Part shown: positions 6,725 through 54,303 of the stretch, in pieces
How positions within the stretch are numbered: position 1 is the stretch's first letter
Layout: each line of letters opens with the position of its first letter
From: Psammoneis japonica
Taxonomy: Eukaryota
DNA: 64,000 nt
Assembly (NCBI GenBank): GCA_008632985.1
Contig: QPGO01000182.1
Span: 1-64,000, forward strand
Direction of reading: 5' to 3'
Position numbers and translations under genes: made by a program
The notes under the pieces: generated by a model
What the model saw: only the letters and a program-made list of their open reading frames with translations
Databases searched by the model: none
Told to the model about the DNA's origin: nothing

Positions 6725-7012
6725 GATACGAAGTTTTACTGTCGATTTCGCCCCCAAGTTATGACAACCATGCTTTTTCTTATGGCGCGTCTTGTTGCCA
6801 CGTCATTGTCTATAGCCCTTCGCGTCTCGGCGAAACTGAAAAATGCCAAAACATGACATCATCAGCGGAAATTGCACGGTCACGCATGCTGGCACCCAGT
6901 CGTCATGTCAGGGAAGTATTGAAGCAGCGTGGTGAAACTTCACCTCTACCTCCTTCACCATATCAACAATTCATACAGCAGTACGTACTACCAAAGCCTT
7001 TGTTTATCCATA

Positions 7013-8514
7013 ATGAATGATAGGACAGAGAAGGCGGCTTCTTTGAGGTCGCCAGCTCTTAAAGAAAAATGGTCCAGAACCAGTAGCACGGTACTGGATG
7101 TATTCGATGAGAATGAAAAGCCGTCGAACGAAAAGCATGAAAAAGCAAAGGGCGTCGTCGACCGTAGGCAATTCTTCAAGCAAATGCGTCAAGAGTCCTC
7201 ATCTAGCTGGCAACCAGAGAATAATGGAGGGCAACAGATAACACCAAGCATCACAATACCGCAAGCCTTGTTGGATGTCAGCCGGCATACTACTGCATAT
7301 AGCGTTGGTACGGCGGCCGAGGAAGAAGATGATCAAGCTAAATCTGAGTTTTCGATGGGTGATCCTCTTCACGAAGATATTCTTTTGATCGGTCGGTGGC
7401 GGAACCGCGTCGGAGCGTTCATAAACTGTCGGATATGCCAGTGCATTTTAATGGGTATGATCATCATCAACGCCGGAATACTGGGAGCCCTGACCTTCTT
7501 GTACGACAACCCAGGGGCCTCCAGGGTATTGGAAATCATTGATTACACATTCCTTGGAGTTTTCACGCTCGAAACTTCTCTTCAGGGGTTCTATTTGGGA
7601 CCCGTACGTTACTTGAGAAACCTCTGGCTGTTGTGGGATTTAATCATTATTATTCTGTCCTGGGCTTTCTTGTCGTTCCCGTCGATCTCTGTCATGAGAT
7701 CATTTCGGATTTTTCGGATTTTTGTTCTCTTTTCGAGATCCGAGTCTATGCGGGTTCTTGTGAAGGCAGTCGGTCGGACCCTCCCAAAGATGGCATCCAT
7801 CTGGGTCGCGCTGCTGCTGTTCTTTTACACCTTTTGCGTTCTATTCACGGTAAGACAATGTCTTTTAGCCGTCTCCCTAGCTGCTGCTACTTTCTCACTT
7901 TTGCTTCCATGTATCGTTGTCTTTTGCAGGATCTCTACCATGGCTTATACGACGATAACTACTTGGATTACGACTACTTTGGAAGATTGGATCGCACCTT
8001 TTTGACACTCTTCCAATTCATGACGTTAGACTCTTGGTCGAATGTCGTCCGCCAAGTTCAGGAAGCACGTCCTGCTGCCTTGATTGGTTTCTGTATTTGG
8101 ATCATTATTACGGCCTTTTTCGTCATGAACCTCATGGTGGCCGTGATTTGTGAATCCTTGATTGAGATTAACAACATGAGAGACAAGAAGAGACAAAACA
8201 AAATGCTCAAGCAACAACGTAACTTGATTTCGGCACAGACGGAAGAGCTATTGGAAGAAACTCACGAAGTTGTCAAGCTGCAGAAAGAGATGCTAGCAAA
8301 TCAAGTGATTATGCAGCAGCTTTTGGTGCAAATTGCTACGCAAATGTCGCAGCAGAACAACCCGCAGACATCCTTAGCACCCCCTGATCAAAACAATGCC
8401 GAGCAAGTAGTAGGCGGAAAAGGAGCACTTGCGAGATTAATGACTGATGTCGCAGATGAGAGTGATGACGAAAATGTTCACTCCGAAGAACCGCCTCGGA
8501 GCACGGAAGACTAA
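7013..8514 (+). CDS. Single-domain voltage-gated cation channel, EukCatA/BacNav-like, paralogue 1 (intron 7850-7929)
   Basis: 6-TM Ion_trans layout; S4 RSFRIFR; pore FLTLFQFMTLDSWSNVVR; S6 MNLMVAVICE; C-terminal coiled coil. Confidence 0.85.
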
Positions 8515-9321
8515 ATCCACACGCCTGATTTTTCATCCTCGCTTCCTGTTGCAGGCTTGCACTTTTTTGTTGAACACAACACGTTCTGATTCTCAATTCT
8601 CAATTTATGCCTTCTCTGTTGTCACCATGTGCCATCGTCCGGTTAACAACTGCCTCGTGGAGTACATCATTTTGTAGTCACAGTTAACCTTGTAGTTCAC
8701 ATTTTTTTGCAGTTTACACGTTGAAGAGCTAAAGCAGAGACGTGAGGGACAGCAGAATGAGGCGTCAATGGAGCTGCCGGAGCGGAGGGATAGAAGGAGG
8801 GGCATTTCGTAGATGGGGCAGGGGGGATTCATGCAAAAGGCAGAGAGGAACCAAACAGCATGGGTGGAAAGATGGTGCGGGATGCTGTGGCTCAAGGGTG
8901 CAGGAGTGGTGGGGGAGGGAGGACTGGTGTGTGCTGCCACAGCGGCAGCAACTGGCAAGTCAGTTCCAGGTGAAATCAGCAGAAGGGAGGAGGGACGCAG
9001 GAGAAGCAAGGGCATGAAGGAGGGCAAAGTGGAGAGCATCAGAGTCATGGAGGTCAGAGGAAGAGGGCCAGGGAGGCCTGGACTGGGAGCAAGTGGCAGA
9101 AAGCAAAGAAACAAAGAGGAAGCAGAAAAAGAAGAAGCCAAGAACACCCAGGTGACCAACAGCAAAAGGAACAAGGAAGATCCTGTTGCTGTTGTTGTTG
9201 AGGGAGTCAACAGCAAGAGAGCCATCAACTGAGAAACAGGATGGTGCAAGGAACTTTTGCCCCATGCCAATGTTGCACTGCAACTCCTTTGTGGATGCAG
9301 AAGCAGAGGGGGCAGGCAGGC

Positions 9322-9597
9322 TGACAGAAATTGAAGGCAAATGGCAAGAATTCAAACAACAACTCCTTGCTGCTGTCTAAACAGCAGATGAGTCTCCGCT
9401 CAGAGACCGTCACAGGAGCCGAAAGATGTGCAAGTCAGTGTGGTCGGGCCACTGTTGTCATTCTTGTGAGCCTTGTGGCTCGAAAGCAAACTGCATCACG
9501 CGCGAACACGCGGAACTAAAGCACACAAAACTGTGCGCGGCAAACCAAACAGTGCGCGACATTTCGCGCGCACCCAAATCCTGTTCAAATCCTGTCA
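9322..9597 (-). repeat. 3' LTR of Copia element
   Basis: Ungapped direct repeat of 16721-16996; TGACAG...CTGTCA ends. Confidence 0.95.
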
Positions 9598-12047
9598 CTC
9601 CCCAGTTTGCTTGAGGAGCCACAGAAACAGATTCGACTTCGGATGGAATGAAGTTCCAGAACATGAGGGGGCAGAGAAGGTCCCAGATTTGGGAGCAACC
9701 CCAATGCTTGCTGAGAATGTCAGCAGGGTTGCGGGAGCCTTCGATGAAGTGGAACTCAAGGCAACCAGAGGCAATTGCCTCAAGCACATGGCGGAACAAT
9801 GGCGCGGTGTGTCGCTTGTGTAACTTGGAGTGCGGGATGGTGGCACTGTCTACAACCGACTTGTTGTCACCGAACATGCAACTGACGTTACGGATCGGGA
9901 CACCAAGGTGGCGCAGGGTGATGCGCAGGTCAACAATCTGCTCAACACAAGTCCTTGCGGCAACAAATTCAGACCCGCAGGTTGCAGTCTCCACGGTGGC
10001 TTGCTTCTCAGAGAAACCAATCAGCCGGGAATTTGTTGAGGAAGTGGAGCATTCCCATGACAGAGCGTCCGGTGAGCATGCAATGGTGCAAGTTTGCATC
10101 GACGCAGTGGGTGGCAGTGACGAACTTGCCAAGGGGCGGTGGAGCATCCTTCGGGATCATCTCTTCTGCTTCGCCGCACACGGAATGCACCCACTCACAG
10201 GCCGGAGCAGGGAGATCCAAACAGCTGGGCTCTTCCATGCGAACGCGGAGAGCGCCGTGTCGCATCTTGGAGAGGTGCCCACAGACGCGTTTGGCACGAT
10301 CCAAGTGGCCTTGACGGGGTGCAGCTCGGAAGCTGGAGAGTGACATGACGGCCGTGGCAATGTCAATTTGACCAAGGGACACTGCCCATTGGAGTGAACC
10401 AACAAGAGACTGGAACTTGTGAATGCCATCGGGCTCCAGCAGTTCGGAAGTGTCCAGCTCGGGGTGGTCACCCTTCTCCAGAGGTGACAGGGCATTGGTG
10501 GCAGGTTTCTCCCCAAACAGTCGGGTGCAGCTGTCGACCATGCGCTCGATGCACTTGCGTGGAGACAGGCACAAGGTGCCGTCGGGATCCCGGGAAAAGT
10601 CGCAACCCAGATGGAACTCAATGGGTCCCGTGCCCTTGAGCTTGAACTTGCACTTTTCCATGAGAGTGTCGACGAAAGATTGAGGGTCCTTCACAGCAAT
10701 GGCAAGGTCATCCACATGAACGGCAATGCATTCACAGTGGTCGCCGTTCCTGCGCATCCAAATGTCGGGTTCGGCGCGGCAGGGGAAGAAGCCTTCAGCT
10801 GGCAGGCAGTTGGCGAAGCGCTCGTGCCAGCGGAGACCGGAGCTGCGCAGTCCACACAGGGCCTTGTGGATGACAAGGATGTGTCCTTCGAGTTTGCCAA
10901 ATTCGGGTCCGGCTGCAATGTAGAGCTTCTCCTTGGTGGTGGCTTCAAGGTGGGCATTGCCAATGTTGGTGGCCCATGTCTCCAACTCGTTGAGTTCGGC
11001 CAGGAAAATCATCAGCCGAAGGCCACGGAGGGAGACTGCTCTGGAGTGGACACCATCGATGGGCACGTCCGTGAGGTGCCCATCAGCTGCGAGTCGTGCC
11101 TTGTGGCGACCGTCGTGTTTCACGTCGCACACCAGGTGCGCTCGGATCTTCTTGTGTCCAGCAGGAGGAGTGGAAGACTCGAAGGGCCTGCAGTCATGGA
11201 AGACTTCGTATTCCCCGAGTTGGTCCATCTCAAGATTAGTTGCGTCTCCCCATTTGTGGTTGCCGTTGCGTTCGTCTGGTGACATGGCGTGTTTGCAGTT
11301 CCGGGGAACTTTGCATCCGCACTTGCAGCGAGGTGCAGTGCGGAAGGAGCGAAGCTTGGCTTGGTTGGCCATGCGAAATGGCTTCTTCTGGTGCCTCGCG
11401 ATGGTGCGGAACCGCTTCCAGCCATCAGCGTCGAGAAGTCCGTTCTCTCGTGCATGGATGGCGCAGGTGACGGGGTCATCCTTGGCGATGATGGCAAGAG
11501 GCTTGGACGTGATCTCCCCACTTTCCCATTCAAGCATGATGTTGTAGCTTGAGCCTTTCCAGGTTGGGTCATGAGGCTTCAGAGGTCCTTCGTGTGACAC
11601 GATGCGTCGAAATTTCCAAACAGCAGTGTCTTCGTCTTCTTGCTCAATGTGATTCATGATGTCGTTGCAGGCAAGGACTTCCTCGTATTCATCGTTGTTG
11701 ACAGAGCAGACAAACTCAGTGAGCTCAGGATTGCCACTCACTTTCCATTCGTGGTCTTCGACGGCCTTGACGATGCGAGCTCTGTGGCGTTGTCCGTCCT
11801 CTTGTGGCTGCATGAGGAAGGTGCGTCTGATGATGTCTTGCGGATCGAAAACTGGCATCTTGGGTGTCCTGATCTCCCCATCAGGAGAATCGACGGGGTT
11901 GTCGTCATGGCGAGATTTGATGATGGGTTCAGGTGGCTCCCCATCAGGAGGATCAAGACGCAGGTTTCAAACGGCAGGATCGGTGGCAGCGGATCGTACG
12001 TTGGACCAGCAGAGGATCTTCTGAGTCTCGTCAGAGAGAATCTTGAA

Positions 12048-12437
12048 GACGCGTTCCAGGTCTAGGTGGGACCTCGCACTGCTGAACTGTGACATCGACA
12101 GTTTTTTGAGTCTCGTCGTATGTCGCGCACGTAGATTTCTACGTGATTTTTTTGATGTTTTGTGTCATTTTACGGTGCACTTGTTGAGTGATCCGTCCAA
12201 CAACTTTTAACATTTTTTGTTACAGCGCGATTCTACAATGTCTTAAGAATCGCGTAGGGCAGGCGAAGTTGCAAAAACGTCGAGTGGCAAGAGGCACAAT
12301 TGTGCCACAAACTTGGCCGTTTGTTTGATGTTGAAGACAAATGTGTCCATTGATTAAATTCTCGTACTACGGAGCTCGCACGTAGAATTCTACGGGCCCA
12401 ATGTCACACGGAGTCCCACCTAGGGCTGGAACGCATC
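12048..12437. mobile_element. 390-bp MITE inserted into the Copia pol region
   Basis: TIRs GACGCGTTCCAGGTCTAGGTGGGAC / GTCCCACCTAGGGCTGGAACGCATC; 4-bp TSD TGAA (12044-12047, 12438-12441); removing it restores HQMTFKILSDETQ. Confidence 0.9.
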
Positions 12438-12764
12438 TGAAGGTCATCTGGTGGCCGACGTGCTCAGCAATGCCAACAAAGCGTCCACGCAACTCACGGG
12501 ATTCGGATGGCCAATCGGAGTCATCGAGGTGGAAGTGCACAGGTTCCCACCAGTGAAAGCGAAGCAATGGGCTGATGTCCGGGGTGGAGCCAGTGAGAGT
12601 CTCGAGGGGTGTGTGCCAGTGGAGACGTGGGGACGCTGCATGGTTGAGTGTGAAGCACACGCACATGAGCGCCAGCAGCCATGTGTGGGCAGGCGAACCG
12701 AAACGATCCATGACAGTGTTCGCCATGTGCTTCACAGTCTGGCATTGACGCTCGGCAAAGTTTT

Positions 12765-13108
12765 GGTGTTGCTGGTGAGGCTCACTTTGCCAGCTGGAGA
12801 TGAAGAGGGCTCGTAAAATCCCGATCACCTTGTTGCTGATCTCAACTTGAGCACGGTCGCTAATGAGTTTGGATGGGGCACCATGCTCACGGATCTGATC
12901 CTCGAGTGTGTTGACAAACTCCTTGTCCGTCTTGGTGGTGTTGCTGGTGAGGCTCACTTTGCCAGCTGGAGATGAAGAGGGCTCGTAGAATCCCGATCAC
13001 CTTGTTGCTGATCTCAACTTGAGCACGGTCGCTAATGAGTTTGGATGGGGCACCATGCTCATGGATCTGATCCTCGAGTGTGTTGACAAACTCCTTGTCC
13101 GTCTTGGT
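12765..13108. repeat. 172-bp tandem duplication within the Copia integrase
   Basis: 12765-12936 and 12937-13108 differ at only two positions by eye; TKTDKEFVNTLEDQI...SEPHQQH is encoded twice. Confidence 0.9.
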
Positions 13109-16100
13109 GCCACAGACGTCAGTGACGGTAGACTCGGTGCCAACAAACAGTTGGGCACTGGTGCAACCAGAGTCGACGGCCGGGGTGTCGGCACAAATGG
13201 TGTCAGTGGCAACAGGCTCGTTGCGGCGGTGCACATTAAGGGCGGGGTTGGGTGATTTGCAGGCCTTCCTAAGGTGTGCGCCGGCGGGCATGCGGACGCA
13301 CTGCGTGGTGCAGTCAAAAGTACGACGGACCGCATCGGCAGGCAGGAAGCCAAAGTGAGGCCGAAGAGACTCGAAAGGGGGGGTCCTTGGGCTGCACAGT
13401 GCGCTCCGGGGGCGGCACGTCGTCGTCCTTGGGGTCAATCGCGTGCAGATGACACTCGTAGAATGCGTCGTCGTTTGGAATGAGGTGATCATCGAGGGCG
13501 GACGTGTGATCGGCAGACAAGGAAGTGGACATGATGGTCTCGTTGACAACGACACGATGACGGCAGTTGCCGCATTCGTCAAATGGGTTGGCAGTGGGAT
13601 CGTCCTGCAGGTCAGAGATCGCGTCGCACCACTGGTCGTCGTCAGTGGCAGAGTGATCGAGGACGGAAGGATCCCATGTGTCATCACCGGTGAGGATGAC
13701 ATGGGGCAGGGTGTCCCATTTGGCATCAGTGCAAGGTCGCATGGCAACACAAGGCAGGCCGCCCTTGATGTCAATGGGGATGACATGGCCATCAGGAGTG
13801 GCAATGCGTTGCAAGCCGTTGGGCACCTTGACAGAGCGATCGTTGACATCCTGTTTGTGCCACTCGAGCTGGCCGCAGGAATGGATGGTCTTGCCCTTGC
13901 CCGTGCATGCGTGCTGATGGAGGATGGCGACGACGGGACCACGCTGGGTCTCAATGACGGCACCCACGGTGACAACAGGGATGTCCACCAATTGATGGTC
14001 GTCAATGCCCTGAACGTCGACTTTGCGAGAGGTGCATGCAATGACGCAAACGTTGTCATCAGCAATGCCGCCGTTGGCCCCACGATCGACTGGAGCACCA
14101 GTGCGTGTGGAGCGATGAGCAGAGGCAGAGCAAATGACATTGTGGTTGTTGACGCGACGGCAAGTGCGGCCGTTAAGTTCCACGTCATCGGCAGAAGCTG
14201 GCGGGGTAGAGGGAGCGGCGGATGGCCCCGGTCGACTGGCGTTGGGGGCTTGGTTAGGAGACAACAGATGTTGCAGATCACCGGGTGGCAGTGGCTTGCG
14301 CTTGGTGAGGTGCGCCAGGATGGGATCATCCGAAGTGGCATCCACACTTGGAGCGGAGTCACCAGAGTCAGCAGGAGTCGTGTTGGACAAGTTGACATCA
14401 CCGTCACTCCCAAGGCATTGGTCGTGAAGGTTGGCCGCAATGGACTCATGGCAGTTGCTGGCTTGCGGGTTGCGGGGAGGCGGACGAGAATGCTCAAGGA
14501 TGATCGCCTTGGAGGAATGGGGCAACGAATCCCAAATCCGTTGGTGGTCGGGAGGGAGACGTTTCCATTGGTCGCCGGTGAGGCTGGGACCACGGGCGCA
14601 GGCAGCATTGGCCTGAAGGACGTCAATGTCGCTGTCAATGTCGCAGAACACATCGTCGGACGGTTCCTCGGAGTGGACATCGTGTGCGCATGTGGCACGT
14701 CGGGGAGCTCGAGGTGTCATCTTGGGTTGAAACGTGCTGTCGCATTGAGCCGCTGCGGAGAGGAGCAAGCCACAGCATTGATCGCATGTGAGGCTCTTGC
14801 CACTCTGCGTGCGATGCTGATCAGCTTGGCTCTTGACAGCACGGAGTTCCTCGACAGGGTGTGCGGCATTCTCGAGCATGGCGTGCTTCTGTCCTTCAGA
14901 GAAGTGGTCACTGGCTGGGATGAGTGCCTTGCACTTGCGCAGCTGATCTTGCCAATGAAGGATGAACCCGTGGGTCGGACCTTTCCAAGTGCCATCACCA
15001 AGACGTGTGGTGGTGAGGTGCGTGAGCAAGGTGGAGGACTCAACAGATGCGTGGGTGGAGGCGAGCGCATGCTCAGACAAGGCACGGTGGACGGTCTGGG
15101 CATCAGAAGACCCCACATTTTTGCGAATGAGAGCCTTGCCCTTGTCGGTGAGAAGAATGCGTTCAAAGACGGCGAACATGTGCTTTTGCTGTTCAGCAAA
15201 GAGCAGTTTGTCTTCGGGGCTGGTCGGTTTGTAAGACGAGTCTAGAATGCACTCAACGTCTTGGGCACGGGCTTGTGCCACAAGTGAGGTGTGCCAAGTG
15301 TGCCACTGCTTGTCGGATTTGAGAGCCGTGAAAGCGGTGGGGTCACGCTTGATGCCTTGCTTGAAGTCTCACACCGGGTCGCGTGCCTTGGTCGGGTTGG
15401 TGACATGCGGAGGTGCGAGGGGTGAGCTGCCGACGGACACAGAAGACATGTGGTTGGGGCTGAGGCGGCAGGCAAGGAACTCGTCATGCGCGAACAATGA
15501 GGAGTCATTGGCAACGTCAAGACCTTCATGTGCTTTGACAATGTGCAGACCAATTAGAGCTGCTAACATGTTCTTATAACCGCGGGGCAAAGGGATCACA
15601 TTGGTGCCGTTGTTGCACTCAAGTGAGTCGATTTGGGACGGCATGAACGCGAACAGTTCTTGATGCGAGTCCATGCCGTCTTGGGTCAAAGCCAAATGAA
15701 GAGGGCTCCCAGCACCTTGGGCAAGCACGGTTCCAACAACGTGCTCGAAACCATCGGTTTGTTGCTGACGAGTGAGAACCATGGTAGACAAAAGTGGTGT
15801 CAGGACAAGCAATTCTTGTTGGGAAGCGAAGGTGGACTTGAAACTTGGGTGAGAATGGACTTGACTTGAAACAGACTTGACTTGAAACCTTGAACTGCCT
15901 TAAAATCAGAAGTCGCCGGGCTGTGCCATCCCGTTCGTTGTCAAGTGCTAAACTTCCCATCTGGTCCGTAGAGTTGTGCCGGCACGTCCGAACCCGCAGC
16001 TGGCGGTGCTTTGGGTTGCTTACGAGCGGAGCAGCGGGTTGTAAACCCCTGCAGGTGAGCTGACCAGAGGTGGACAAGACCCCCGAACCGTTCTCATTTT

Positions 16101-16720
16101 ATGTCGGTTGGATTTCCCGATCAGGCTGGCCAGTTGACGCAGGCGCCAGGCGCTGTGGACGAACGAACAAACGCGGGAAAGCACCCTCGCCCCAACGTAG
16201 GCTGCAATCACGGCCACTTGCTCTCACAGTCGTCCTCGTGGACCTGGCAGAACTGTGGAGCACCAGTGGTCCGGGGTGGATCAGGCACAATGGACTCGGT
16301 GTGCTTGCAGAGTGGCAGCAAAACTGCAGTCCGAAGAGTGGGTGCAAGTTCTTGGCCGTGAAGATGTGTGTGTGCACACATGTCTTCAGCAGACAAAGAT
16401 CCTTGAACATGTGGGGTTCTTGACCGTCAACCGATGAATGGGCACATCAAGGGATGAGGATCAAGGATGGACTTGGATGTGACCGTTGATGCATGTCTTC
16501 AGCAATCAAAGGCAGCACAATCAATCCAGACATCCAGCGGCAAGGAGACTTGACGGTGACGTTAAATTCCTGCCGATGCCTGGCATTGAATGCGCGCAGA
16601 CTTGCCGATGCATGTAGAGTGCACACGGAGGTCCACGCAGAATTGAGGTGGCGTCGTCGGTAAATCAACAACAACGATGGCGGTTGCTCAATGGGTTGAC
16701 AATGAGCAAGACTGTCAATC

Positions 16721-16996
16721 TGACAGAAATTGAAGGCAAATGGCAAGAATTCAAACAATGACTCCTCACTGCTGTCTGGATGGCAGATGAGTCTCCGCTC
16801 AGAGACCGTCACAGGAGCCAAAAGACGTGCAAGTCGGCACAATCGGGCTGCTGTTGTTGTTCTTGTGAGCCTTGTGGCTTGAAAGCAAACTGCATCGCAC
16901 GCGAACGCGCGGAACTAAAGCACACAAAACTGTGCGTGGCAAACTGAACAGCGTGCGACATTTCGCGCGCACCCAAATCCTGTTCAAATCCTGTCA
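16721..16996 (-). repeat. 5' LTR of Copia element
   Basis: Ungapped direct repeat of 9322-9597. Confidence 0.95.
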
Positions 16997-17923
16997 CAGG
17001 CAGGCCTGGAGGAGAGCAACAAGGGGCTTTGGGTGCAGCAACATCAGCGGTGATGCCATGTCACACTCCAACTCTTCATCCACCAACCATGGGCTGGATT
17101 TTTGGCACCCGCTGAGAGAGCAAAAGCTGGTGGTCGTGTGAAGGCAAGCCGTGTGTGCAATCAACAAAATGGTGTTGTGAATGTGCAAAAGTCTCGCCAC
17201 TTGTTGTCTCGCTCAATTGCCGTGCAGATGCAGCCAACTCACACTGTCAATCCTCCGACAAATCCAATGTCATGGTTTCATGTCGTCAAACCCACTTTGG
17301 CAATGCCAATGACAAGAGGAGCATTTTTCAAGACTTTGACAAAGCAGCTCCAATGTGAGCAGCCAAGTGTTTTTGAGTGGGAGAGGGCAGGGCGTGGGGC
17401 GGATTTTGGAGTGAAAACGCAGAGTGAAGCTGGTGTGCTGTTCAAAAGAAGCAGTCAAACAACGTTCACAAAGTTGCACATTGATGATGCTCTCCTGCAG
17501 AACAACAAATTCAGGCAATGGAAGTGCCCCCTTGCTGCTTGCACATTCGCACTGTAGTCTACTACCTACCGTACCATACACAGTGTGTATGAATAGAGAG
17601 GTCGCGCGAAGACGATGCATCAGAACACACCATCACCCGTCGCCAGTCGGTCACGCAGTCACCACCGAATCCACCAAGCACGTTGCACTGTCGTAGACTT
17701 CAGAGCACGAAAGCGAAGCCATGCCACTCCCTCTGCTGAAGTGCCCTCTGACACTGTTTTCTACTGTCTGTGATTGATCTGCCGACATTCAAGTGTACCA
17801 GCACTGGTGCCGTCCGACACGACTTCAATTCAATTCAATCCTATACATTACACAACTACTTTCAGCTGCTGCTGCCCAGTGGGGGCTTTGAATCGCCTGA
17901 ACTTTCCTTCAATCCACGAGCGA

Positions 17924-20707
17924 ATGAACTCGATGCTTGTTCTTCTGCTGCTGCTCTTTGCCAATTGTCTCCAACACGTCAACGCAGCAGTTTCCTGCAA
18001 CACATCAGAAGCATGTGAAGAATTACTGTACCCCGGTTCCGAGTGTTCTGAGGGTTTCTGTACCAATCCGTACACTAAGGGTGGCTGCTTGGCCAATCGA
18101 GTGCCTGGATGGAAGAAGATACGAGTCTGCAGCAGCGACGACCCACCGATTGCGGCCTCCTTGGGCCATTGTCGTGAACCCTATCAAGGACTAGAATATA
18201 CAGAAATTCGATTGGCTGGACAAAATTGGGAAAGTGCATTTTTCATTGCATGGATTCAACAAATTATTCTTTCCGAGCTACTCGATGTCCCCACGAGCCT
18301 CGAGTCGGGTGAAGCGGGGAAAAAGATTAACTTTTATGACCCAGAGAATGCGTTAGATTATGGCATTGCCTACCCATGGGATGGGCTGGCAACAGCGACA
18401 AGAGTCAAGGATTGTCGTGCAGTCGACAATAGCAATAGCGAAAACTATGAAGTGTGCGCGCACGTCATGTCCGAAGTTTGGCACAATCGAAGGAACAAAG
18501 TGGAAGAACTAGAAGAGGCTGGTGTGATTGAGCCCTTTCAATTTCTCGGTGTGTTTGCCAAGGCAGGATGGTACATTCCTCGCTTCACGGGCAAGCGTGA
18601 TCCGACATTGCTTACGTATTTGGGTCTCAAGGGAGAAGAGAACCGAAGAAAGCTTGCCGAGACTTTCTTGACACCGACAACGTGGTCCGAGTACTGTAAT
18701 GAAGTGTCGGCTGATAATTGTACGGAAACCAACAATGTCACGGCTCGAGCACCGAGAAACAACGAAGAAGGTGAAATGTACTTTTCCGAGGGCCTGTACA
18801 CTGGTCATTTCCGAGCTACAGCTGAAAATGACTGCGATGCCAACCCTACCACCTGCCATGGACACTTTGCAGACTATCCGTGCGGTTGGAGCACAGTCTT
18901 TCAAGCTCAGGCATACCACAATAATATTGCGCTCAACACGACTGGTGACGAACCGTTTGGTTCCGGATACTCCTATCCGAGATTGATTGAAGTATGGTAC
19001 GCGGCAAATGCTACAAAGTCAGATGTCATTATGCATTGGTGGCAACCTGAAGCACTCTACCAGCTCTTTCTTGGAACCGATGCTGAGTTTCAGAAGGTGG
19101 ACTTGCCACCCGCGACACTGGAATGTCTGCAGTCACGAGTCGATATCGACTTGGTTCGATGCTCGGGTGACTTTGTCGAAGAGCAAGGCAGTCCAGAGGG
19201 TGCATGCGATGATCCAGATCAAGCACTGATGAAGCTCATTAGTGCTGGTTTGTACGAGAAAATCAACGATCCGTCAATACCGGAGGCAAGACGAAGTCCG
19301 GGATATGATTTGTGAATGACTTTAGCATCGAATCTTTGCAGCTGGATCAGATTTTTTATCTTTGGCTGAGCCGATCTGGTAAGTTTGTCAAGCATCGTTG
19401 TGTTAAGTAGCTTTGCGTCTCTAATGTCGTCGCCGTTTTCGTTTGATGCAGTCGATCGGTACGGCTTTGCCCCTCGCGACGCCCTTTGCCAATGGGTTTC
19501 CGATAATCTTGATTTCATTCAGTCCTTTGTCCCACGGACTTATCCGAGAGCTATAAAAGAAGACCAACAATTCGACCCGCTCAGCTACACCTCGTTGGCA
19601 TTGGGTATTGTCGCCGTGGTGCTTGTGTGCTTCTCATGTGCGGCAACATATGGAAAGCGCGAAAAGATGCTCGTTCGCCATGCTCAGCTCGACTTTATGT
19701 TTCTGTTGTTGGCCGGACTCCTCCTTGTTTCGATTGCCTCAGTTATAAGTGCACTTTCAGATACCGATGCTGAATGCGTGTCTGTTGCCTGGTTGATAAA
19801 TGTTGGATACACGTTGGAACTTGTCCCTTTGATTATCAAGGTATACGCAATAAATCGCTTGACACAGGCTGCAAAGCATTTCCGAAGAATTGAACTGAAA
19901 CGGGTGACATTGTTTGGCGCAGTCTTTTTACTAACTGCTCTCACAATCATCTTCATGATTATCTGGACAGTGGTTGACCCTCCGCATATTGCATCGCGGT
20001 ACCTCTTGACAGACGAGGTAAACGATGCCGGCGAGACTATTGTCTCTGTCAGCTACTATTGTCGCTCTGATTCTGAGGCTTGGGGCTTTGTTAGTCTCGG
20101 AAGCCAAGGCTTTCTGCTGTTTGTTGCAAGTGTGCTGGCCTTCCAGATGAGAAATCTGAGACACGAGCTCAACGAGTCGCATTCTTTGGCCATCTTGATC
20201 TACTCCCATTTCATCTTTTGGGTTTTGAGGCTTGTGTCATTCGCTTGGCTCGAGAATAGTGACTTTGCTTCCGCCGTTCCTGGTATTTACAGCCTCATCC
20301 TTGGAGTCGATTCCATTGCTTCGATATGCATCTATTTTCTGCCCAAATTTTTCCTCAAAGATGAGGTGGCACGGTCAGCGACTTTCTTTGATACTGGCAT
20401 GCCCACACCCATGACGCACGCACAAGGCGATAATGGCACGGTCCCAAGCCCGCCACTTTCAGCCACGGGAGTTGCATCACTAGAAATCGCCGATGCGGGT
20501 AGTGATGACAATAAGGCCGGGTTTGACGAATTGCATGGAGCCGAGTTTGTCCGGTACGAAGGTAGTTGTCCTCACTGCGGCTGTGAGATCGAACAGGACT
20601 TGTTGCGTTCAGAACTTGAGGTTTCTGCCGACATGATGATTCCCTTGAAGGGTGCGTCATCGGATGGTAAAAAATTCGTGGAGATAGAACCAGTCGCGGC
20701 AGGATGA
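17924..20707 (+). CDS. Class C (7tm_3 / GABA-B-like) GPCR with large Cys-rich extracellular domain; intron 19379-19451; apparent 1-nt frameshift at ~19310
   Basis: Signal peptide; NWESAFFIAWIQQIILSELL periplasmic-binding-like segment; 7 TMs with WLINVGYTL, WTVVDPP, CRS and LNES motifs. Confidence 0.75.
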
Positions 20708-21641
20708 CACGACCTATCGTGAAACAAGTTGCATGTTCAGCAGAAAGTCAGACTGTGATGAATCTATGCCTACATGCGACCATTGCATTCTTTTTTTCAC
20801 GAAGTGATTGTTCTGCGTTTCGAGAGTGGGTTGGTTGCTGCTGGGAAGTCAGGTCGGGCGATTTGGATTCAGGATGAGGATCGCGTCAGAGGTTGGGGCT
20901 TTGAACTTTCGAAGCCTGGAAAGCCGGAGAGGAGTGGGCTTGTGACTGACAGAGTTAGTGGACCAGGTGCAGAATGGCATAGTTCCTTTATGCACCTGCA
21001 TCGGGTCGGTCCGAATCTCTCACTGTAATGCCAAATGGCTTCATTAGAAAGCTCATTGCCATATCTGAACTCTACAGGAAGGGACCGGGGATTGCTCGTA
21101 TATTCTAAGTAACGTCGTAGTAGGTTTTATGTTTCCCATAATGGTACTGTGAGAAAAAGTAATCATGGCACTGCACTCACTTTAGCTTCGAGAATCCTCT
21201 CCAAAAGCGATACTGGCTCAAAATATCTGATATTAAATTACTTGAGATACTAAACAATAATTAAGCCTGAGATTATACTCTTCTATGATAGTACCAAGTC
21301 CTTTCTGGTGTCTTTCCCAATACGTTAAAATCAATCTTGAAGCAGAAGGCCATTGCGATGACGATGATTCATGCGGATTTACGGCTACTATAATAATATT
21401 CAGTACGGATTATTTCATATAACGATCACATCCGTTGACGTCCATTTCCCAGAAATCATCGCCACATCCACCGCACACACAACATTCACAACGATGCACG
21501 TTGAAGAACAGCGCAGCGAACGAGAACCCTCGTCTCTGCATGTGCTGGTTCTCATGTTGTAGAGTAACGTCCAACGTGATACAGTAATCCTCATTGGCGT
21601 GACCTTACTACAGAGTATTGGTACGAATTGCTTAATCCGTC

Positions 21642-23188
21642 ATGATGGAAGAGACAAAAAAGAAGGTGACTTTTCTGCCCGATCAATACAGTCGATCAAG
21701 AACATGTAAAACTGTAAGTCTCGACGACGATTACGATGATGCAGGCACTACCTGTCTTGACGAGAACACCTCGAAGGAGGATCGCGAAGCAGATAACCCG
21801 CAAGATCGTAGAAAGCAACTGACTCAAATGAAACCTTCATCCTCTAAGAATGAGCAACAAAATACGTCAGAAGGGGAACAAGCTGCGATCATCATACCCC
21901 GAGAAATGCTGAGACACGCGAGTAATAGCACTATGTGTAGCGACGATGACAATGCTACAGCACCTTCTTTCTCACTGGGCGATCCTCTTCATAATGATAC
22001 TTCAGTAATTGGCCGTTGGCGTAACCAAGTAGGCGCCTTCATCAATTGTCGGGTGTGCAAGTGGACATTAATGGGCATGATCTTCGTCAATGCCGCAATA
22101 CTTGGGGCCCTCACCTTTCTGTATGACAACGCAGAAGCTTCTAGAGTATTGGAGCGCATAGACTTGGTGTTCCTTGTCATTTTCACTTTTGAGACTACGC
22201 TTCAGGCGTTCTACTTGGGCCCCATACGCTACTTGAAAAACCTCTGGCTGTTGTGGGATTTCATCATTATCACTCTATCTTGGGCTTTCTTGTCGGTACC
22301 GTCCATTTCTGTTATGAGATCCTTCCGAATATTTCGGTTGTTTTTTCTTTTTTCGAGAGCTAAGTCTATGAGGCATCTTGTGGAAGCGGTCGGTCGGACC
22401 CTGCCAAAGATGGCGTCAATCTGGGTTGCCCTTCTGCTGTTCTTTTACACCTTCTGCGTTCTCTTCACGGTAAGCACTATCCAATGTCCTTCTCCATTCC
22501 AGATTTCAAACTTCTATAATTACTCACATCTCTGTTCTTAAAGGATCTTTACCATGAGCTATACGATGAAGACTACTTGGACTACGACTACTTTGGAAGA
22601 TTGGATCGCACCTTTCTGACACTCTTCCAATTCATGACGTTGGATTCTTGGTCAGATGTGGTCCGTCAAGTTCAGGAAGCACGTCCTGCCGCCTTGATTG
22701 GTTTCTGTATTTGGATCATTATTACGGCCTTTTTCGTCATGAACCTCATGGTGGCCGTCATTTGCGAATCTTTGATAGAACTTAACAACATGAGAGACAA
22801 GAAGAGACAGAACAAAATGCTCCGTCATCAACGTAACTTGATTTCGGCACAGACGCAGGAGTTATTGGAAGAAACCCATGAAGTTGTTAAGCTACAGAAA
22901 GAGTTGTTAGCAAATCAGGTGGTGATGCAAAAGCTATTGGTGCAAATTGCTACTCAGATGTCGCGGCAAGACAACCACGAGATATCGTTGAATGCTAAAG
23001 ATAGCACGTCTCGTGGGAAGGGGGCCCTTTCAACACTTCTATCCGAAATCTCCGACACTAGTGATACCGAGCGCCATCTTCCATGCGATGAGCCACCCGA
23101 CCTTTCACTTGACGAACCACCAGAAGTCCTAAATCCCGAGGGCATGATGTTCTATACAAGACCGGCTTTACAATTTTCTCGAAAGTGA
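21642..23188 (+). CDS. Single-domain voltage-gated cation channel, EukCatA-like, paralogue 2 (intron 22470-22543)
   Basis: Same architecture and intron position as 7013-8514; pore TLDSWSD. Confidence 0.85.
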
Positions 23189-23449: not shown

Positions 23450-24810
23450 AACGGTGGACATGAACATGATGCTCGATGACAGATGACTCCAACACATGAG
23501 TCTGTTGGCTCCATGGGATCGTCACATTGTATGATGAGTGTTGCTGCAAGAGTTGGAGATGATGTTGGGTGTTTCGTGTTGCTCCAATGGTGTGGGTTTC
23601 ATTGTCACCATGTGGATTCTCATCAAAAACTGGGTGCCTGACAAATGTTGATGTGTTGGTTTGCATTGCAGAAGGAGATTTTTACACCTCATCTCACCCT
23701 TTGAAGCTCAGAGAACAGAACCCCTGTTGTCAATGTGACTTCCACCATTCTGCCCACCAAGCCCAACACTCTTGTGTTGGCTCCTGCAGTTGGGTCCCTC
23801 TCAAATGCTCCCCCCAAGCATTTCCAAAAGATCTTTTCCCAAGTGAGCCCCGTGTCTCCAAGATCCAAGAGCATCAACTCCAAAAATTGCAGCAGCAGCA
23901 TCAAAGTCAAAGAGCATTGCTGCAAGTTTGGCTCTTGGGACTTGGCAAATGCTGCAAAGCATGTGCCTCACATGTCCAGTTCTTGTGCATCCAAGAATGT
24001 GTGACATTGACATGGCCACTCAGCAATTGTTCACTGGGTTGAGTGTGAGCTGGCATGGGTGTGTGCATTGTGCACTCCATGACTTCTGCTCCACTTCTCA
24101 AGTTTTGAGTTCACAGAACACAGCTGGAATTTGCCAGCAGCAGCATTGCATTCTGCAAAGTGGAGATGCTCCAAGAGGCAGCAAAAGACCATTTGGGAGG
24201 TTTCAAACCTTCACACAGAACTGGGAAAGGAAAGTCCTCCACAAAGACACCATTCTGTTTGAGCAGTGTGTGACTCCTCCTCCGACAAGAGTCACAGTGC
24301 TCAAGCTCTTGACGTAATGTGATGCAACAGTGCCTGCCTGAGCTGCTGACAACAAACATTTTCTTCTGCTGCACCTGTGTCCAGTTTCAACAGCAAGCAT
24401 GAGCTGCCTTTTGAGTGGGCACAGGTGGAGCCCTTGCCTTGTTTGGCATTTTGGGAGTCAGCAACCACCAACCAACTTTTTGGTGTCCAAGTCAGTGGGT
24501 CTGGAGAAACGGGCCGCTGAGCCCGCACAAACAAGGCCCCACACAAAATGTTTCAGGGCTCAGGTTTGCCACTCTGTCCAAAGGAAAACAAACAGAAAAG
24601 AAAGAAAGAAAGAAAGAAAGAAGTTTGAGAAACACAGAACGCCTCTGTGCGCTGGTTTGGAGTTGCACTGCATCCCCATTGCTGATCCAGGTGCGGGTGC
24701 CGCTGTCCCTCGTGTTGTGCAGTCCTACAGTCTCAGTTGACAAGATTGGTTTGACGGACTGTGCAGGGGTCTCGACACAAACATTCACACTGCACTGGTG
24801 AGAGCATTGT
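23450..24810. repeat. Degenerate repeat remnant, depleted in TpA and CpG
   Basis: Abrupt compositional shift with CA/TG excess; no recognisable intact ORF. Confidence 0.55.
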
Positions 24811-32219: not shown

Positions 32220-34680
32220 AGATGTCATGTGCTCTGACAATTGAATGAAGAGAGCAACAACAAGAAGCAGAGTTTGAGAGGAGAGCACAAAAAAAGAGAA
32301 CCACACCAGTGGTTCCAAGTTGATGTCACTCTGCCGGCTCCTGCCAGGCAGCCACAAAATGCAAGGCTCTCAACCAAGTGCCAGCACCCTTTCTTGGTTG
32401 GCACATCACATTCTTCAACAATGACAGCAACCCCAATGGGATCTAAGACATTTGTTGCAGCAAAAGCTGGTTGTCAACAAATGAGCAGAGGCACCAGCGC
32501 AGAGGAGCAGCAGGAGCAGCAGTGCAGCGCTTGCCGCCAGGCCTGTTCCAGCTCCAGGCGATGCTCACAGGTTGGATTCCCATCACTGGCCAATTTTTGA
32601 ATTTGGCACAATGAACTCTTTCAAAATCAGGTTTTTCCCAAATCAAAGGGTGCACACAAAACTCATGTTTTGTGTGCACCCACCTTTCGAAACGATCAAA
32701 TTTGAAGAAGTTCAACGTGCCAAACTGCAAAAAATCGGCCTCTCGCATGATGGATTTTTCATCACCTGGGGCTGGAAAATCCACCAGCACACTTCTAGAC
32801 AGGCTGCACTTTGACAAGAAAAGTTGCTTCACAAAGGCAACATTTGCCAATCAGGCTGTCACAAACAACACGCAAGTTCAAGAGAGTTTTTGCATGTGGC
32901 AAGGGGCAGACCCTCATGGCAGGGCCACTTTTGCAGCAGCACAAAATCCAACAACCTCTGGCACACACTCAACTTTGTGCATGCATGTTAAAACTGCAGT
33001 GCAACACCTGCATGACATGCCAGCGGGGGAGGGGGGTGCACATGGCTGCTGACAACCACTGCATTTGGGACTGTGCAAAAATCTGTGCGCACTTGTGTGG
33101 CATGACTTGGGATTATTTTGTGCACTGGCTGGAAGCGCAGTTGTCAGGCCATCCATTCAACAACCAAAGTTTTTTCATGCAGCTGCATTCTCTGATGCCC
33201 ACAGAAAAACCACAACTGTGCGTGCATGTTTTCCAAAAATCTTGAGCATCATGGAAAAATCATGCAGCAGCATCACACAAAATTGAAGTTGGTTGGCTCA
33301 TTTTGACATTGAAGATGAGCAGCATGCTCATTGCCCAACATGAATGAGCTCTGCAGCTCACACACAGATTTTTTCAGCGCCACATCATGCTGCACAAAGA
33401 ACACAAAACCCACCCAGAGCCAGGGTCCATCTTCATCATGGGGCCCCACAGTCTGCAGGAATTTTTGCATGTGGTGCTGAAACATGCAGCCTGCACATGC
33501 AAAACTGGTGCAGTTTCTGTGACAAAAAATCAAAAAAAGCCTGGTTTGCAAGGCAGCTCTGGTGCAAAACCTGTGCAATTGGTCCCCATGCATTCACGTT
33601 GAACTCCACGCATTTCTGGGGGTTGCAGATCCCTCCACATTTGTGGGGTCCCACGATGAATCTCTCTTGTTCTTGAGACACACGTGGGACAGTCATGCAA
33701 TGCGCACACAGATGAGGAGGTTTGTGTGCAAACAAGCTTTTTTCAAATGAGACATCTTGCAGCAAGCACAGGGCAAAAAAGAGAAAGATGAAAACATCTG
33801 GGCTCTGCTCCTCTGGCACACACCTCATGCCAATTTTGGATGTGGAGCCACCACAAAAAGTGCGCAGCAAAACACAGCTTCCCCAGGAGGCTCTCTTCTT
33901 GGTGGGGTGGGCACATTCATTGGCACCTTGTCATGAAGAGCAGCAAGGGCATGCACACACACAATTCTTGTCCAATGCAATGACTGAATGAAATAACTTG
34001 CTTTTTGACCTTTGACAACAACAATGCAGTGGCAGCAGCACAAACAAAATGGGGCTTCAAGTTGACACCCCACACTGCTGCCACTTCTTGGGGAACAGCA
34101 AGCAACTTCCAGGAGTCTTGGAAATGATTGGGGCAGGCACAACAGATTTGTCAATTTGTGCTGTTGGGTGCACAAAAAACGCACTGGAATTTTGTGTGAA
34201 CGGAGGTTGCCACAAGCGCGCTGCCAGAGCCATGTTGCACATGGTTGTTTTGGCTGCAGCTGCAGCAAACCATGCATTTTTGCACTAGATTTCCTGATTT
34301 CTGCACAAATTTGCTTTGGTTTCTAAAAAACTTCTCATTTGATTTGAGCTCCCTTCCCAGCCAAGAACCCTCAGCACATTTTCTGTTCTGCAGCATGTGG
34401 GGGACGAGGAGAGACAAAAGCAACCAAAAAGTGGTGTGTGTGCAGCTGAGCACACACAACAAGCAGCAGCGGCAGGAGAGACCACTTTGTGAAAAAAAAA
34501 GTGTCATCAGTTTTTCTGTCACAGGCAGATCAAAGTTGACAGTGGACAAAGTGTGTGCAAAAGCAAGTCTCACACCTGGGCATGATTTACCATGCCAAAA
34601 AAAATCCATGACCGATTGGGGCACAGCATTCCGAATCATCATCGCGTCAGACACGGTGACGTTCTGATCGCTGACGCGTT
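32220..34680. repeat. Degenerate repeat remnant, depleted in TpA and CpG
   Basis: CA/TG-saturated block bounded by normal-composition DNA; family not identifiable. Confidence 0.6.
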
Positions 34681-36289: not shown

Positions 36290-38551
36290 GGTTTGAATAA
36301 AGTATTAAATGCAGTAACACAGTGCGACGTGATGCTTGATGACTGCCCTACATACGAGTACAAGCTACTCTAGAAACTCACGCTTTACATCGTTTAACGG
36401 TTCAGCATTCCCCTTCACGTAGATGTGTGTAATCAGAGCCAACATCCAAGACCAACTTGAACGTCACAATCAATAATGTTCTTGATGAGGTAGGCAGCAA
36501 CAGTTGCCCCGCCCAAGAACATGGGGAGACAGGAGAAGTCGAAGCACATTTGGTTCCAAACCAACAAGAACTTCTGAGCCATTCGAAAGCACATGGCAGG
36601 GAGTGAGATTTTGGACTCAATTGTCAATTCCAACCACCTCAAGGTGATGGGTCCTGCTTCTTTGTTTGTGCAAAGGTGAGCATGTTTGTTCTTCTCAAAG
36701 AACACACAATCCTCCAATCTGCACAATGTGGCATTGTCTGCATCTAACAGCGATCTCAACATGTGATTCATCAGGAGCAATCTGCCCCAGCTCACTGCAC
36801 AACTTGAGAATGAAAACATTGATGAGATGTTGCAGACGTGAAACACGTTTTGACCACAAACATGTTCCATTGCACATGTGAGTCCACACTGAAACAACAA
36901 AACTGACTGGCAAAATCTGTCACTCATGTCCAGGACTCAAAGCTCACATGAGTGCACCCATTTTCCTCCAATGACCATCCAGTGTTCATTGCAAATCACA
37001 ACAGCACTGTTGCAGAAAATGTCTTTGGTTTCAGAATGTGCTGCTGTGCTCTGGATTGAATGTCAAAGAGCTTGAGTGCTTGGGGGTGCAGTCTGACAAT
37101 GCACGGCATGGTCATCATGGTCCATGACCACTTCAATGCAAGACAAGTGCATCAATTCACCAATGTTCATGAAAATGCCATGGGCACACACTGGTTGGAA
37201 TGTGCAACAATGTGCCTTGGTCATGCACACATTTTTGCTGCTTTCTGCAGGTGCATTGAAGCTCCAGAGAAGGCTCTCATGGCAAGGTCCTGGCAGCAAA
37301 CCACAGCCAACAGCCAACTCAGATCCGCAAATGGAGAGTGACAAGGCAATTGCTGCATGCACCCACCACCACAGCAAGATGTCATTGCTGCTTCTGTCAT
37401 TGTTTGCAGAAGGAGGAGAGAGAGAGCCACCTCGCTGCTCCACCATCCAAACCATGCATCCTTTCACAAATCTTGCACAAATGGGCATTTTTTTGCCATT
37501 TACAACAAGTGGCAATTGGGCCTTTGAGCTCATTTCTCTCCAAGTTTCTCTCAAGCACTGTTCACTTTGGCCACTGTTGAGACAAGCCCTCATCAGCCTT
37601 GTGCTTTTCCACAACATCAAAAGTTGCTTCCTGGGAGAACTTTTTGACTGACCCTGAGAATGACAGTTGACTTCAGTTTGCAAAATTGAACTCACCAAAT
37701 GTGATCTTTGCAGCCAAGTGACAACAAACCAGGTTCCATCCATCATCCAGTCTCCAACAATTTTGTGTGAATGAGGTGCAAAGGACCAACAAAAGCAGAG
37801 TTTGATGTGCCGGAGGAGGAGGGTGCTCAAATGATCACAGTTTTCTTAATGATCTGCTTTCAATGATCATTTTCATAAAGATTTCATCATGAAGATCAAA
37901 GATGATGGCAATGATGACATGCCACCACCCCCATTGGACAGATGGGAGAGCTTGAATGACAAGAACAAATCACGCAAGGACAACATGGCCAGCAAACATT
38001 CAAAGGGGCTTTGTTGGCAGCAATGGAAAACTCCTTGGCAAATCAAGAGTGCATTGTGGTTGGTCACTCCAAGGAACACCCACCAAAGAGTGCAACAGAA
38101 CCCATGGAGCCATGTTCGGCCACTGTCTTGTCTTGGTGCTGCACTCACATTTGGCATTGTTCATTTGATCTGACCTTGCCACATTCCATTTTCTGTTTTG
38201 CAGGCACTGGGAATTCATTGGCCAGTTTCTCATCAAAGATTTGGGGGGATGTGAATGCTTCGATTTCAAGAACTTTCATGACTGTGTTCATTTGATGGAA
38301 AGTCAACACTGGAGGCAAAACATGTGCTAATTTACTTTGGAATGTTGGCTGTGGCAATGATGTGCCAATCAATGAGTGCAGTGAGTGGCATCACCTGTGG
38401 CCACTCTGGGTTCATGGATCAGTGGAAGATGATGTGAAACACCATTGCATCCATTCCCTTGTTCACACACAGTGTTTGCTGGTGCTTTGGGTTTTTGTTC
38501 ATGGATCATTCTACACCATCATGCACTGGGTGCAGTTCTGCACTCTGGCTC

Positions 38552-52966: not shown

Positions 52967-53660
52967 ATGAAAAAACCAAGATGGACAGCAGAAGCAGCAG
53001 AAAGTGATTGCTGTTTCCCTCCTCCAGGCTCTGTCCCAAAACCAAACGACATGCAAAGATGTCACGGCAAGCCAACTCTAGCCATTGGTGTCTGGTTCTT
53101 TGCCATGAGTTTCTGTGAGCACTCGAAGACCAAAGGCGACCAACGAACCAAGCTGCTGACCCTCAAGAATCTCTGCTTCTTCCAAGACAACACCAAACTG
53201 CAACACAAAGACCCAGACCTGGCCTCAGCTGATGCCATCTCCATCACCTTTGAGTGCCAGAAGAATGATGAAAGATGTGACACTGTCACAATGTTTTGCA
53301 CCGGAGACAACTTGCTCTGTCCTGCCCATGCATGGGCAGCAGTCAGCAGTGGTCCATTGGGCACTGTTCTGACCACCAGGCTCTGTCCCAGACTCCCCAG
53401 TGTGCCCTGTTTGCACCAATGGAAAACTCCACTCTCTCCTCCTCAGTCATCCATTCCAAGATGCAAGCAGCAGCAACTGTGATCAGCAAGGACAAGAAGC
53501 CAGGCTGCAAAGCTCATGAGGTTGGTGCTCACTCCATTTGCTCAGGAGCAGCCATGGCAGTGTGTCTTGCACATGCACCTGTTTGCTTGATCAGCATCAA
53601 TGTCTCTTTGCAAATGATCTCAAGTGCCAACATTTCTTTGCAACATTCCGGACTCTGACC
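52967..53660 (+). pseudogene. Tyrosine recombinase remnant of a YR element (DIRS/Ngaro/Crypton-like)
   Basis: FFAMSFCEHSKT...SITFECQKND...LCPAHAWA and EVGAHSICSGAAMAVCLA match degenerate R-x-x-E and H-S-x-R-x-G-A-A motifs. Confidence 0.75.
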
Positions 53661-53875
53661 CCAAAGATCCTGGAACCTGCAATCGCCACAAACTCCAAGC
53701 CACTGATGTGAGCAACGGCACATGTCAAGTGCAGTTGATGGCACAACTGCAATCATTTGCTCTCTTCACTTGAGCGGCTCAGATTTCAGCAATCAGATTG
53801 AAATTTTGCAAGTGAGTCATGAGGGTGCATCAACTGCAGCACTGTCGGGTCCCTGGGGGATCATTCACACTGGGG

Positions 53876-54303
53876 ATGAAAATTTCTCCAGGCCAAACCA
53901 TTGGGTTTTAATGTCAGACTGTTTGCACTCGGGGCTGGAGTCCGCGACCTGTGGTGAAGACTTGGTTGGATGGGCCATTGTTTGATCAGACCATGTGGAT
54001 GCATTGATTCTTTCAGCCGGCGATGCACACAACATTCGGTGAATTCAATTTTGCGCGCCGATGTCAACAGTCATTTCTCAACGACTTTGGAAGTTGTTGG
54101 CGAAGCTGTGACAATCATCGTCGTGCATTGCAAGCTCTGTCGAGTTGTCTTGGTCTTCTAAATTCCCCAAACCCACCCTGCATCAACAACTGCGGCGTGT
54201 CAGGAATGAAAATTTCCCAGGCCAAACCGTCAGGTTTTCACGTCAGACTGTTCGTTTCGGGATTGGAACCCGCGACCTGTGGCGAGGACTTGGTTCGATG
54301 GGT
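53876..54303. repeat. ~100-bp direct repeat pair (53876-53976, 54206-54303)
   Basis: ATGAAAATTTC..CAGGCCAAACC...GTCAGACTGTT...CCGCGACCTGTGG.GA.GACTTGGTT.GATGGG occurs twice. Confidence 0.8.

Follow-up and report, generated by a model that had tools for sequence, protein, structure and literature searches.

Our analysis points to a 390-bp miniature element (MITE) of ordinary TA content nested within a retrotransposon that has lost almost all of its TA dinucleotides. The window, by which we mean the whole 64-kb stretch of Psammoneis japonica DNA analyzed, carries a dead Ty1/copia-type element (here called Copia), and the MITE sits in its pol region. We consider it likely that the MITE is a cut-and-paste DNA transposon that arrived after most of the TA sites of Copia had been erased. 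This late arrival is favored because nested layers of differing mutational load, a tandem duplication within Copia, a prediction from sequence context, and the sharp edges of the TA-normal island all agree with it. The coordinates of the features are collected in Table 1.

Table 1. Features of the nested insertion and its surroundings in the window
Feature	Position	Strand	Details
Older TA-void, CpG-poor DNA left of Copia	8811..9316	.	8990-9316: TA 0, CG rho 0.05
Copia TSD CAGGC	9317..9321 and 16997-17001	.	5 bp
Dead Ty1/copia-type LTR retrotransposon	9322..16996	-	TA rho 0.08-0.14, CG rho 0.78-0.83; pol frame interrupted by the MITE
3' LTR of Copia	9322..9597	-	276 bp, TG...CA ends
RVT_2 reverse transcriptase ORF	10008..11966	-	PF07727, E = 2.4e-20, 73.6 bits vs cut-off 31.6
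TSD TGAA, left copy	12044..12047	.	Sequence and empty-site joint (4-5 letters fit both sides)
Non-autonomous TIR element (MITE)	12048..12437	.	390 bp; TA 16 (rho 0.59), CG 27 (rho 1.28)
Left terminal inverted repeat	12048..12072	+	25 nt; 24/25 identity to end of metagenome contig L004
Subterminal 14-nt palindrome, copy 1	12130..12143	.	CGTAGATTTCTACG
Converted patch	12303..12339	.	TG (12303-4), TG (12322-3), CA (12338-9) here; TA in other copies
Subterminal 14-nt palindrome, copy 2	12381..12394	.	CGTAGAATTCTACG
Right terminal inverted repeat	12413..12437	-	25 nt; 3 mismatches vs left TIR, one CpG-type
TSD TGAA, right copy	12438..12441	.	Sequence and empty-site joint
172-bp tandem duplication within Copia	12764..13107	.	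All converted states and both retained TA common to the two copies
5' LTR of Copia	16721..16996	-	276 bp; pair differs at 29 positions
Older TA-void DNA right of Copia	17002..17554	.	17003-17554: TA 0, CG rho 0.41

Inspection of the sequence delimited an element of 390 bp that is bounded by terminal inverted repeats (TIRs) and has TGAA on either side. An inverted-repeat search returned arms of 26 nt (12047-12072 and 12413-12438) that are 88% complementary, and the 25-nt end pattern matched only the two MITE ends in the 64 kb, with 0 matches expected from 100 shuffles. When the MITE was folded as single-stranded DNA, its ends paired over about 100 nt with gaps (-78.9 kcal/mol, z = -7.1). The arms, the target site duplication (TSD), and this end pairing agree with an earlier note on this DNA, which had described a 390-bp MITE with a long imperfect TIR and a TGAA TSD. 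Because the element begins with G, the TSD at 12044 can also be read as the 5-bp TGAAG. Since piggyBac elements duplicate TTAA and Tc1/mariner elements TA, the 4-bp TGAA is unlike both, and a piggyBac-type element is ruled out by the TGAA TSD together with the single TGAA(G) at the empty site. The MITE holds no transposase gene, the longest ORF lying fully within it being 56 aa, and an Rfam search of 11900-12600 gave 0 matches.

Two copies of a 14-nt palindrome lie toward the ends of the MITE. This palindrome has three matches in the window, where 0 are expected, two of them inside the MITE, and it is likely a putative transposase-binding site. A lone exact copy of CGTAGATTTCTACG is found at 58044-58057, in unmutated intergenic DNA with no TIR near; it could be the remnant of a related element, or else a motif of the host.

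The MITE is a true insertion with an exact empty site in paralogous Copia copies. We compared the window over 10500-12760 with contigs from runs X1, X2, and X3 (one sample) and X5 (a second study). The DNA runs of the organism itself, four in number, derive from a single sample, possibly the source of the assembly. One contig each in X1, X2, and X3 joins 12043 to 12438, skipping 394 letters (390 + 4), with sides of 26, 98, and 74 letters and 4-5 letters that fit either side. Eight further X1 contigs read 12048 directly into the sequence after 12442. At 7-8 differing letters per 104-127 bp, the empty-site contigs are too far from the window to be the other allele and represent paralogous copies of Copia.

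The MITE family is also multi-copy. Eighteen X1 contigs continue beyond 12437, the last MITE position, into dissimilar flanks (agreement 0.37), and in X5, from the second study, related MITE ends occur within other flanks. Summed contig word-depth over the MITE bins is 2-3 times that over the Copia bins, a ratio that is not a copy number. The nearest MITE contigs in X2 and X3 differ from the window copy at 8/152, 8/130, and 4/88 letters, a divergence of about 5% that is about the same as that between the Copia flanks and their contigs, and three of the differences are identified. The window MITE may have changed more than its TA count implies, or it could be a subfamily member. X1 also has strongly diverged copies, which differ at 21 letters over 133 bp and at 33 letters over 196 bp. 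For a further 35 X1 contigs the match is confined to the last 67 bp or so, starting at about 12371 and reaching the right end, with differences before it; these possibly represent other subfamilies or an autonomous element. Within the 64-kb window, blastn with the MITE found no second copy, a purine/pyrimidine-alphabet scan for fully converted MITE copies gave 0 hits at ≥44/50, and the inverted-repeat pairs in the large void block included no convincing mutated MITE.

For scans of public collections, we used a TIR pattern in which TA and CG sites were written as degenerate positions. The scan of metagenome contigs returned four loci, three of which look like chance TIR-only matches in GC-rich DNA. 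The fourth, L004, is a true relative: this contig, with 35% GC, has the TIR (24/25) at its end and the same palindrome, ACGTAGAATTCTACGT, inside, and its positions 1-218 hold the MITE-type TIR and the palindrome at a different spacing. Because L004 carries both, the transposon family is present in at least one other organism, and the TIR ends and the 14-nt palindrome are its conserved parts, presumably bound by the transposase. The prokaryote genome contigs gave four hits in bacterial MAGs/genomes that we take as chance matches, the viral contigs gave 0 hits with the TIR pattern, and no RNA run is listed as containing the stretch.

The Copia that received the MITE bears the marks of heavy mutation in its coding region. 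Tyr makes up 0.6%, His 5.2%, and Cys 3.8% of the reverse transcriptase (RT) ORF, and four host genes have 2.2-3.8% Tyr. At the expected place of the catalytic box the ORF reads HVDD, where presumably the usual YVDD would stand. With 12048-12441 removed in silico, the RT frame stays open across the site: it spans 865 codons, interrupted internally by a single TGA, and is joined at a codon boundary. Little can be built on this, as TA-void DNA has few stops to begin with. For the integrase, no Pfam match was obtained in the minus-strand ORFs of 12439-16719, even at E = 5, in sequence that is heavily mutated.

The two LTRs of a retrotransposon are identical at insertion. Those of this Copia now differ at 29 of 277 positions, comprising eight CA/TG doublets, three A/G differences beside a TA site, and 10 CpG-type differences; all 29 are thus TA-derived or CpG-type, with 0 differences of other kinds. 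Because the pair differs at such positions only, the TA loss of Copia occurred after its own insertion. Each of the eight doublets, with CA in one LTR and TG in the other, means two separate hits, one on each strand, at a single original TA, and these independent conversions exclude RNA-level editing before integration. One TA is kept in both LTRs and one in a single LTR, from which a simple model would give about 18 original TA sites per LTR with about nine in ten lost; the CpG loss per LTR is about 0.29. The TA process would have run well ahead of background mutation, the indirect evidence being about nine in ten TA sites converted with 0 LTR differences of other kinds.

In the comparison with contigs, 40 of 169 variants are listed, 37 in the Copia flanks and three inside the MITE. 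At 32 of the 37 flank variants the window has CA/TG and the paralogues have TA, CG, or the opposite doublet; the remaining five (10587, 10801, 11215, 11388, and 11994) are other changes. In the LTR doublets as in the paralogue contigs, TA sites have been changed by A:T-to-G:C transitions on either strand, and CpG-type changes come in addition. The A after TA is sometimes also converted (TAA vs TGG or TAG at 9378-9380, 9441-9443, and 12816/12988), and therefore the process is not strictly confined to the A of TpA.

In this setting the MITE is the sole TA island among about 30 kb of TA-void DNA in the window. Counts in the flanking Copia are 11 TA over 3048 bp on the left side (rho 0.07) and 30 TA over 5063 bp on the right (rho 0.12); Copia proper has 41 TA in 7284 steps, compared with the MITE's 16 in 389 (Fisher p = 1.2e-8), which upholds the earlier note's count of about 15 or more TA in the MITE and very few around it. 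The same note had called the MITE TpA-rich. It is TA-normal only, since the unmutated parts of the window hold 16.1 ± 6.4 TA per 390 bp (TA rho 0.55-0.62); 390-bp windows of Copia outside the MITE hold at most seven (median 2). The description of the MITE as unmutated is somewhat overstated, since three sites read TG, TG, and CA here and TA in other copies. Copia is correspondingly rich in the conversion products, with TA rho 0.07-0.14, CA 1.55-1.60, TG 1.35-1.51, and CG 0.78-0.83. Left of the MITE, a converted site lies at 11987/8; to its right, converted sites are 12465/6, 12468/9, and 12471/2, the latter three read from the consensus of loose-end contigs vs the window sequence, and intact TA sites of the MITE are found at 12063 and 12421. 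We find it reasonable, as had been argued, that so sharp a nested boundary speaks against a regional sequencing artifact.

The three exceptional sites form a patch within a 99-bp TA-free stretch of the MITE (12256-12354). Alternative states are frequent in X1, with A at 12304 in 51 contigs, A at 12323 in 68, and T at 12338 in 37, and by summed X1 depth the TA form makes up 82%, 68%, and 28% at the three sites, respectively; single X2 and X3 contigs carry the TA form at these sites. Because all three MITE variants among those listed are TA elsewhere and TG or CA here, the MITE family is not immune to conversion. Going by the variants listed, between 0 and 3 TA sites of the MITE, out of at least 19, have been lost, which amounts to no more than a minor part of the dose. 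The possibility raised earlier, that the family consensus holds far more TA than this copy, was not borne out among these variants (at least 19 vs 16). The losses at 12304, 12323, and 12338 may have happened at this locus or may be inherited subfamily states.

The locus is built of three nested layers with falling mutational load: the old flank, Copia, and the MITE. The flank has 0 TA and its CpG is mostly gone; in Copia, TA is almost gone and about 70-80% of CpG is kept; in the MITE, both are normal. Because the copies of the tandem duplication within Copia share their converted states and their retained TA, the duplication postdates the TA erasure. The copies differ at two positions, one a CpG-to-TpG change and one TAA vs TAG, and no new TA loss has occurred since the duplication arose. 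One X1 contig skips 172 bases nearby, from 12532 to 12705.

Sequence context also has a strong influence on which TA sites survive. Over about 30 kb of void DNA, TA retention relative to the unmutated frequency is 0 for ATAT, 0.007 for ATAG, 0.017 for ATAC, and 0.36 for CTAA/TTAG and TTAA; an A before TA favors conversion, and TTA or TAA contexts resist it. When the retention of each NTAN context is applied to the MITE, about 2.2 of its 16 TA sites are expected to survive exposure, and protection of these sites by their context is therefore rejected.

Other parts of the window show related compositions. At 36500-54000, 32300-34500, and 23500-24500, TA rho is 0.04-0.05, CG rho 0.09-0.22, and CA/TG 1.8-1.9; three long ORFs tested in the large TA/CG-depleted blocks gave no Pfam domain. 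The segment at 62000-64000 has a Copia-like profile (TA rho 0.08, CG kept at 0.86), and blastn found it without similarity to Copia. Copies of an Ion_trans gene at 6923-8514 and 21636-23188, each in two ORFs, lie just upstream of a TA-void block and may be a segmental duplication. At 17774-20707, an ORF without a Pfam match stands directly upstream of a class C GPCR 7tm_3 ORF. A protein-atlas search with the first of these (17774-19315) gave sub-threshold leads, the best at 0.85, with a weak likeness to OpuAC-type binding proteins; it may form one receptor gene with the 7tm_3 ORF.

Considering these data, we propose the following history. A TpA-to-TpG/CpA process acting at the DNA level would have rewritten about nine in ten TA sites of Copia before the MITE arrived. 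A transposase acting in trans would presumably then have mobilized the MITE via its 25-nt TIRs, probably also via the two 14-nt palindromes, and the MITE would have inserted into the pol region of Copia, duplicating TGAA. As the youngest of the three layers, it would have received at most a small fraction of the mutational dose. From this we infer the order of events, erasure of Copia TA and then the MITE, and a mutation process that is now off or slow at the locus. The chemistry may be adenine deamination, a suggestion taken from the available part of a preprint on Bigelowiella natans (10.64898/2026.01.13.699255).

The earlier note had left two readings side by side, insertion after a mutagenic episode and escape of short elements from targeting; the empty sites, the LTR pair, the duplication, and the context ranking favor the former, and the latter is less likely. 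An escape would mean that the MITE was present while Copia was mutated but was spared, being too short, lacking guide coverage, or being bound by protein. The edges of the TA-normal island, which match the MITE ends to within 44-75 bp, suit such a history, and so does the minimum length of fungal repeat-induced point mutation (RIP), near the 390-bp size of the MITE. We nonetheless think escape unlikely, as the TA sites of this family do get converted (3/3 listed MITE variants have TA elsewhere vs TG/CA here), strongly diverged copies exist (21/133 and 33/196 bp), and the tandem duplication, itself Copia sequence, is also without new TA loss, which escape leaves unexplained. A single-copy region is, moreover, hit in B. 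natans according to the available preprint text, so repeat length is an unlikely trigger (10.64898/2026.01.13.699255).

Late arrival also has a variant, in which the process is continuous and still running, the MITE is very young, and its clustered losses are the first hits. The three converted sites do fall within 35 bp, in the 99-bp TA-free stretch, the duplication has gained one A-to-G change beside a TA and one CpG-to-TpG change, and the older void DNA around Copia is in keeping with long-lasting or repeated activity. However, the window state at the three sites is shared by 18%, 32%, and 72% of X1 depth and may consist of inherited subfamily states, and 41 TA in Copia and four in the duplication remain, some in efficiently converted contexts, so that we hold this variant to be quite improbable. 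Still further down in probability, with very little to be said for it overall, is an artifact or homogenization, in which a mutated copy was restored by polishing with mis-mapped reads of the many unmutated MITE copies or by gene conversion from these, or in which misassembly put the MITE at this place. Such an origin would draw on the multi-copy nature of the family, on the share of the window's sampled words held by X1 (0.57), and on the junctions, since none of the reads or contigs listed spans the exact MITE-Copia junction of this locus. Yet the multi-copy Copia was not "restored," though most of its other copies keep TA/CG at the listed sites, and the MITE retains minority states at 12304 and 12323 that over-polishing would erase. 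Misassembly, for its part, gives no TSD, no colinear one-frame Copia, and no 394-bp difference from empty paralogues.

The arrival of the MITE after most of the erasure thus remains our preferred reading, and a single nested insertion of this kind is compatible with a slow, steady process as well as with an episodic one. By analogy, the activity in 11 of 15 B. natans lines, as given in the available preprint text, would favor a process that is switched on and off. It is tempting, if rather doubtful, to suppose that the mutator fires in short saturating bouts on each new element soon after its arrival and not as a steady drizzle. Were this true, the locus would record three exposures, with the old flank and Copia treated and the MITE not yet; the three conversions within 35 bp would be the first tract of a new bout; and MITE copies of known nesting order would serve as a clock for the speed, frequency, and signal of the process.

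The combination of a nested insertion and a proven empty site provides a before-and-after control at one locus. It suggests that a TA void is a property of the history of each DNA layer and not of the region, that a family of DNA transposons was still active once Copia was dead, and that not everything within a silent block is hit by the mutator at full rate. The same logic, extended over all MITE copies, would yield the rate and the episodic nature of the process without experiment. The context ranking, with ATA-type sites erased best and about one-third of TTAA/CTAA sites kept, offers a testable fingerprint of the enzyme.

With respect to known systems, the MITE is like the plant class II MITEs described in the available part of PMC12595863 in being short and noncoding, with TIRs, a TSD, and many copies. 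The process around it is like RIP in fungi such as Neurospora, in that both consist of dinucleotide-specific transitions, kill transposons in place, leave sharp tracts, and leave later arrivals unmutated. RIP converts CpA to TpA, so that the DNA becomes rich in AT and in TA. Unlike RIP, the process here has the reverse chemistry, as TA is destroyed and CA/TG are made; with TA lost and CA/TG gained in Copia, the locus is not a case of fungal RIP.

The closest counterpart is the TpA-restricted hypermutation of integrated giant-virus and virophage DNA in B. natans (Mettrop et al., bioRxiv 10.64898/2026.01.13.699255). According to the available text of that preprint, TpA-only hypermutation is active in 11 of 15 lines and hence not constitutive, and de novo hypermutation proceeds at about 1000 times the background rate. 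An ADAT-like adenine deamination of DNA is proposed there, the low-TpA gene set is enriched in transposon domains, and the Discussion compares the process with RIP (10.64898/2026.01.13.699255). Both systems share the TpA-to-TpG/CpA change, the enrichment of CpA and TpG, sharp-edged regions, and foreign or mobile DNA as targets. Unlike in B. natans, as far as the available preprint text describes it, the targets here are Copia and repeat DNA of other kinds, the erasure comes close to saturation (rho 0.0-0.14 vs 0.45 in the NCLDV region), and CpG too has been lost from part of the DNA. The evidence differs as well, being comparative here (LTR pair, paralogues, and nested insertion) and drawn from de novo mutations there; the available preprint text does not use nested insertions as time markers and does not say when the process runs with respect to transposon activity. 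TA-specific A:T-to-G:C hypermutation of mobile DNA is thus known, within the available text, from one 2026 preprint on an unrelated alga (10.64898/2026.01.13.699255). A full-text literature search found no other report of TA-specific hypermutation and none for diatoms.

Nested transposon insertions and LTR-pair divergence are general dating methods. As in those methods, we take the insert to be younger than its host and the LTRs to have been identical at the start; unlike in the usual dating, the clock here is a targeted, TA-specific process, and the LTR pair is without neutral differences. To what was described in B. natans, our analysis adds a nested time marker verified by an empty site, a three-layer history, and a context ranking of the mutator.
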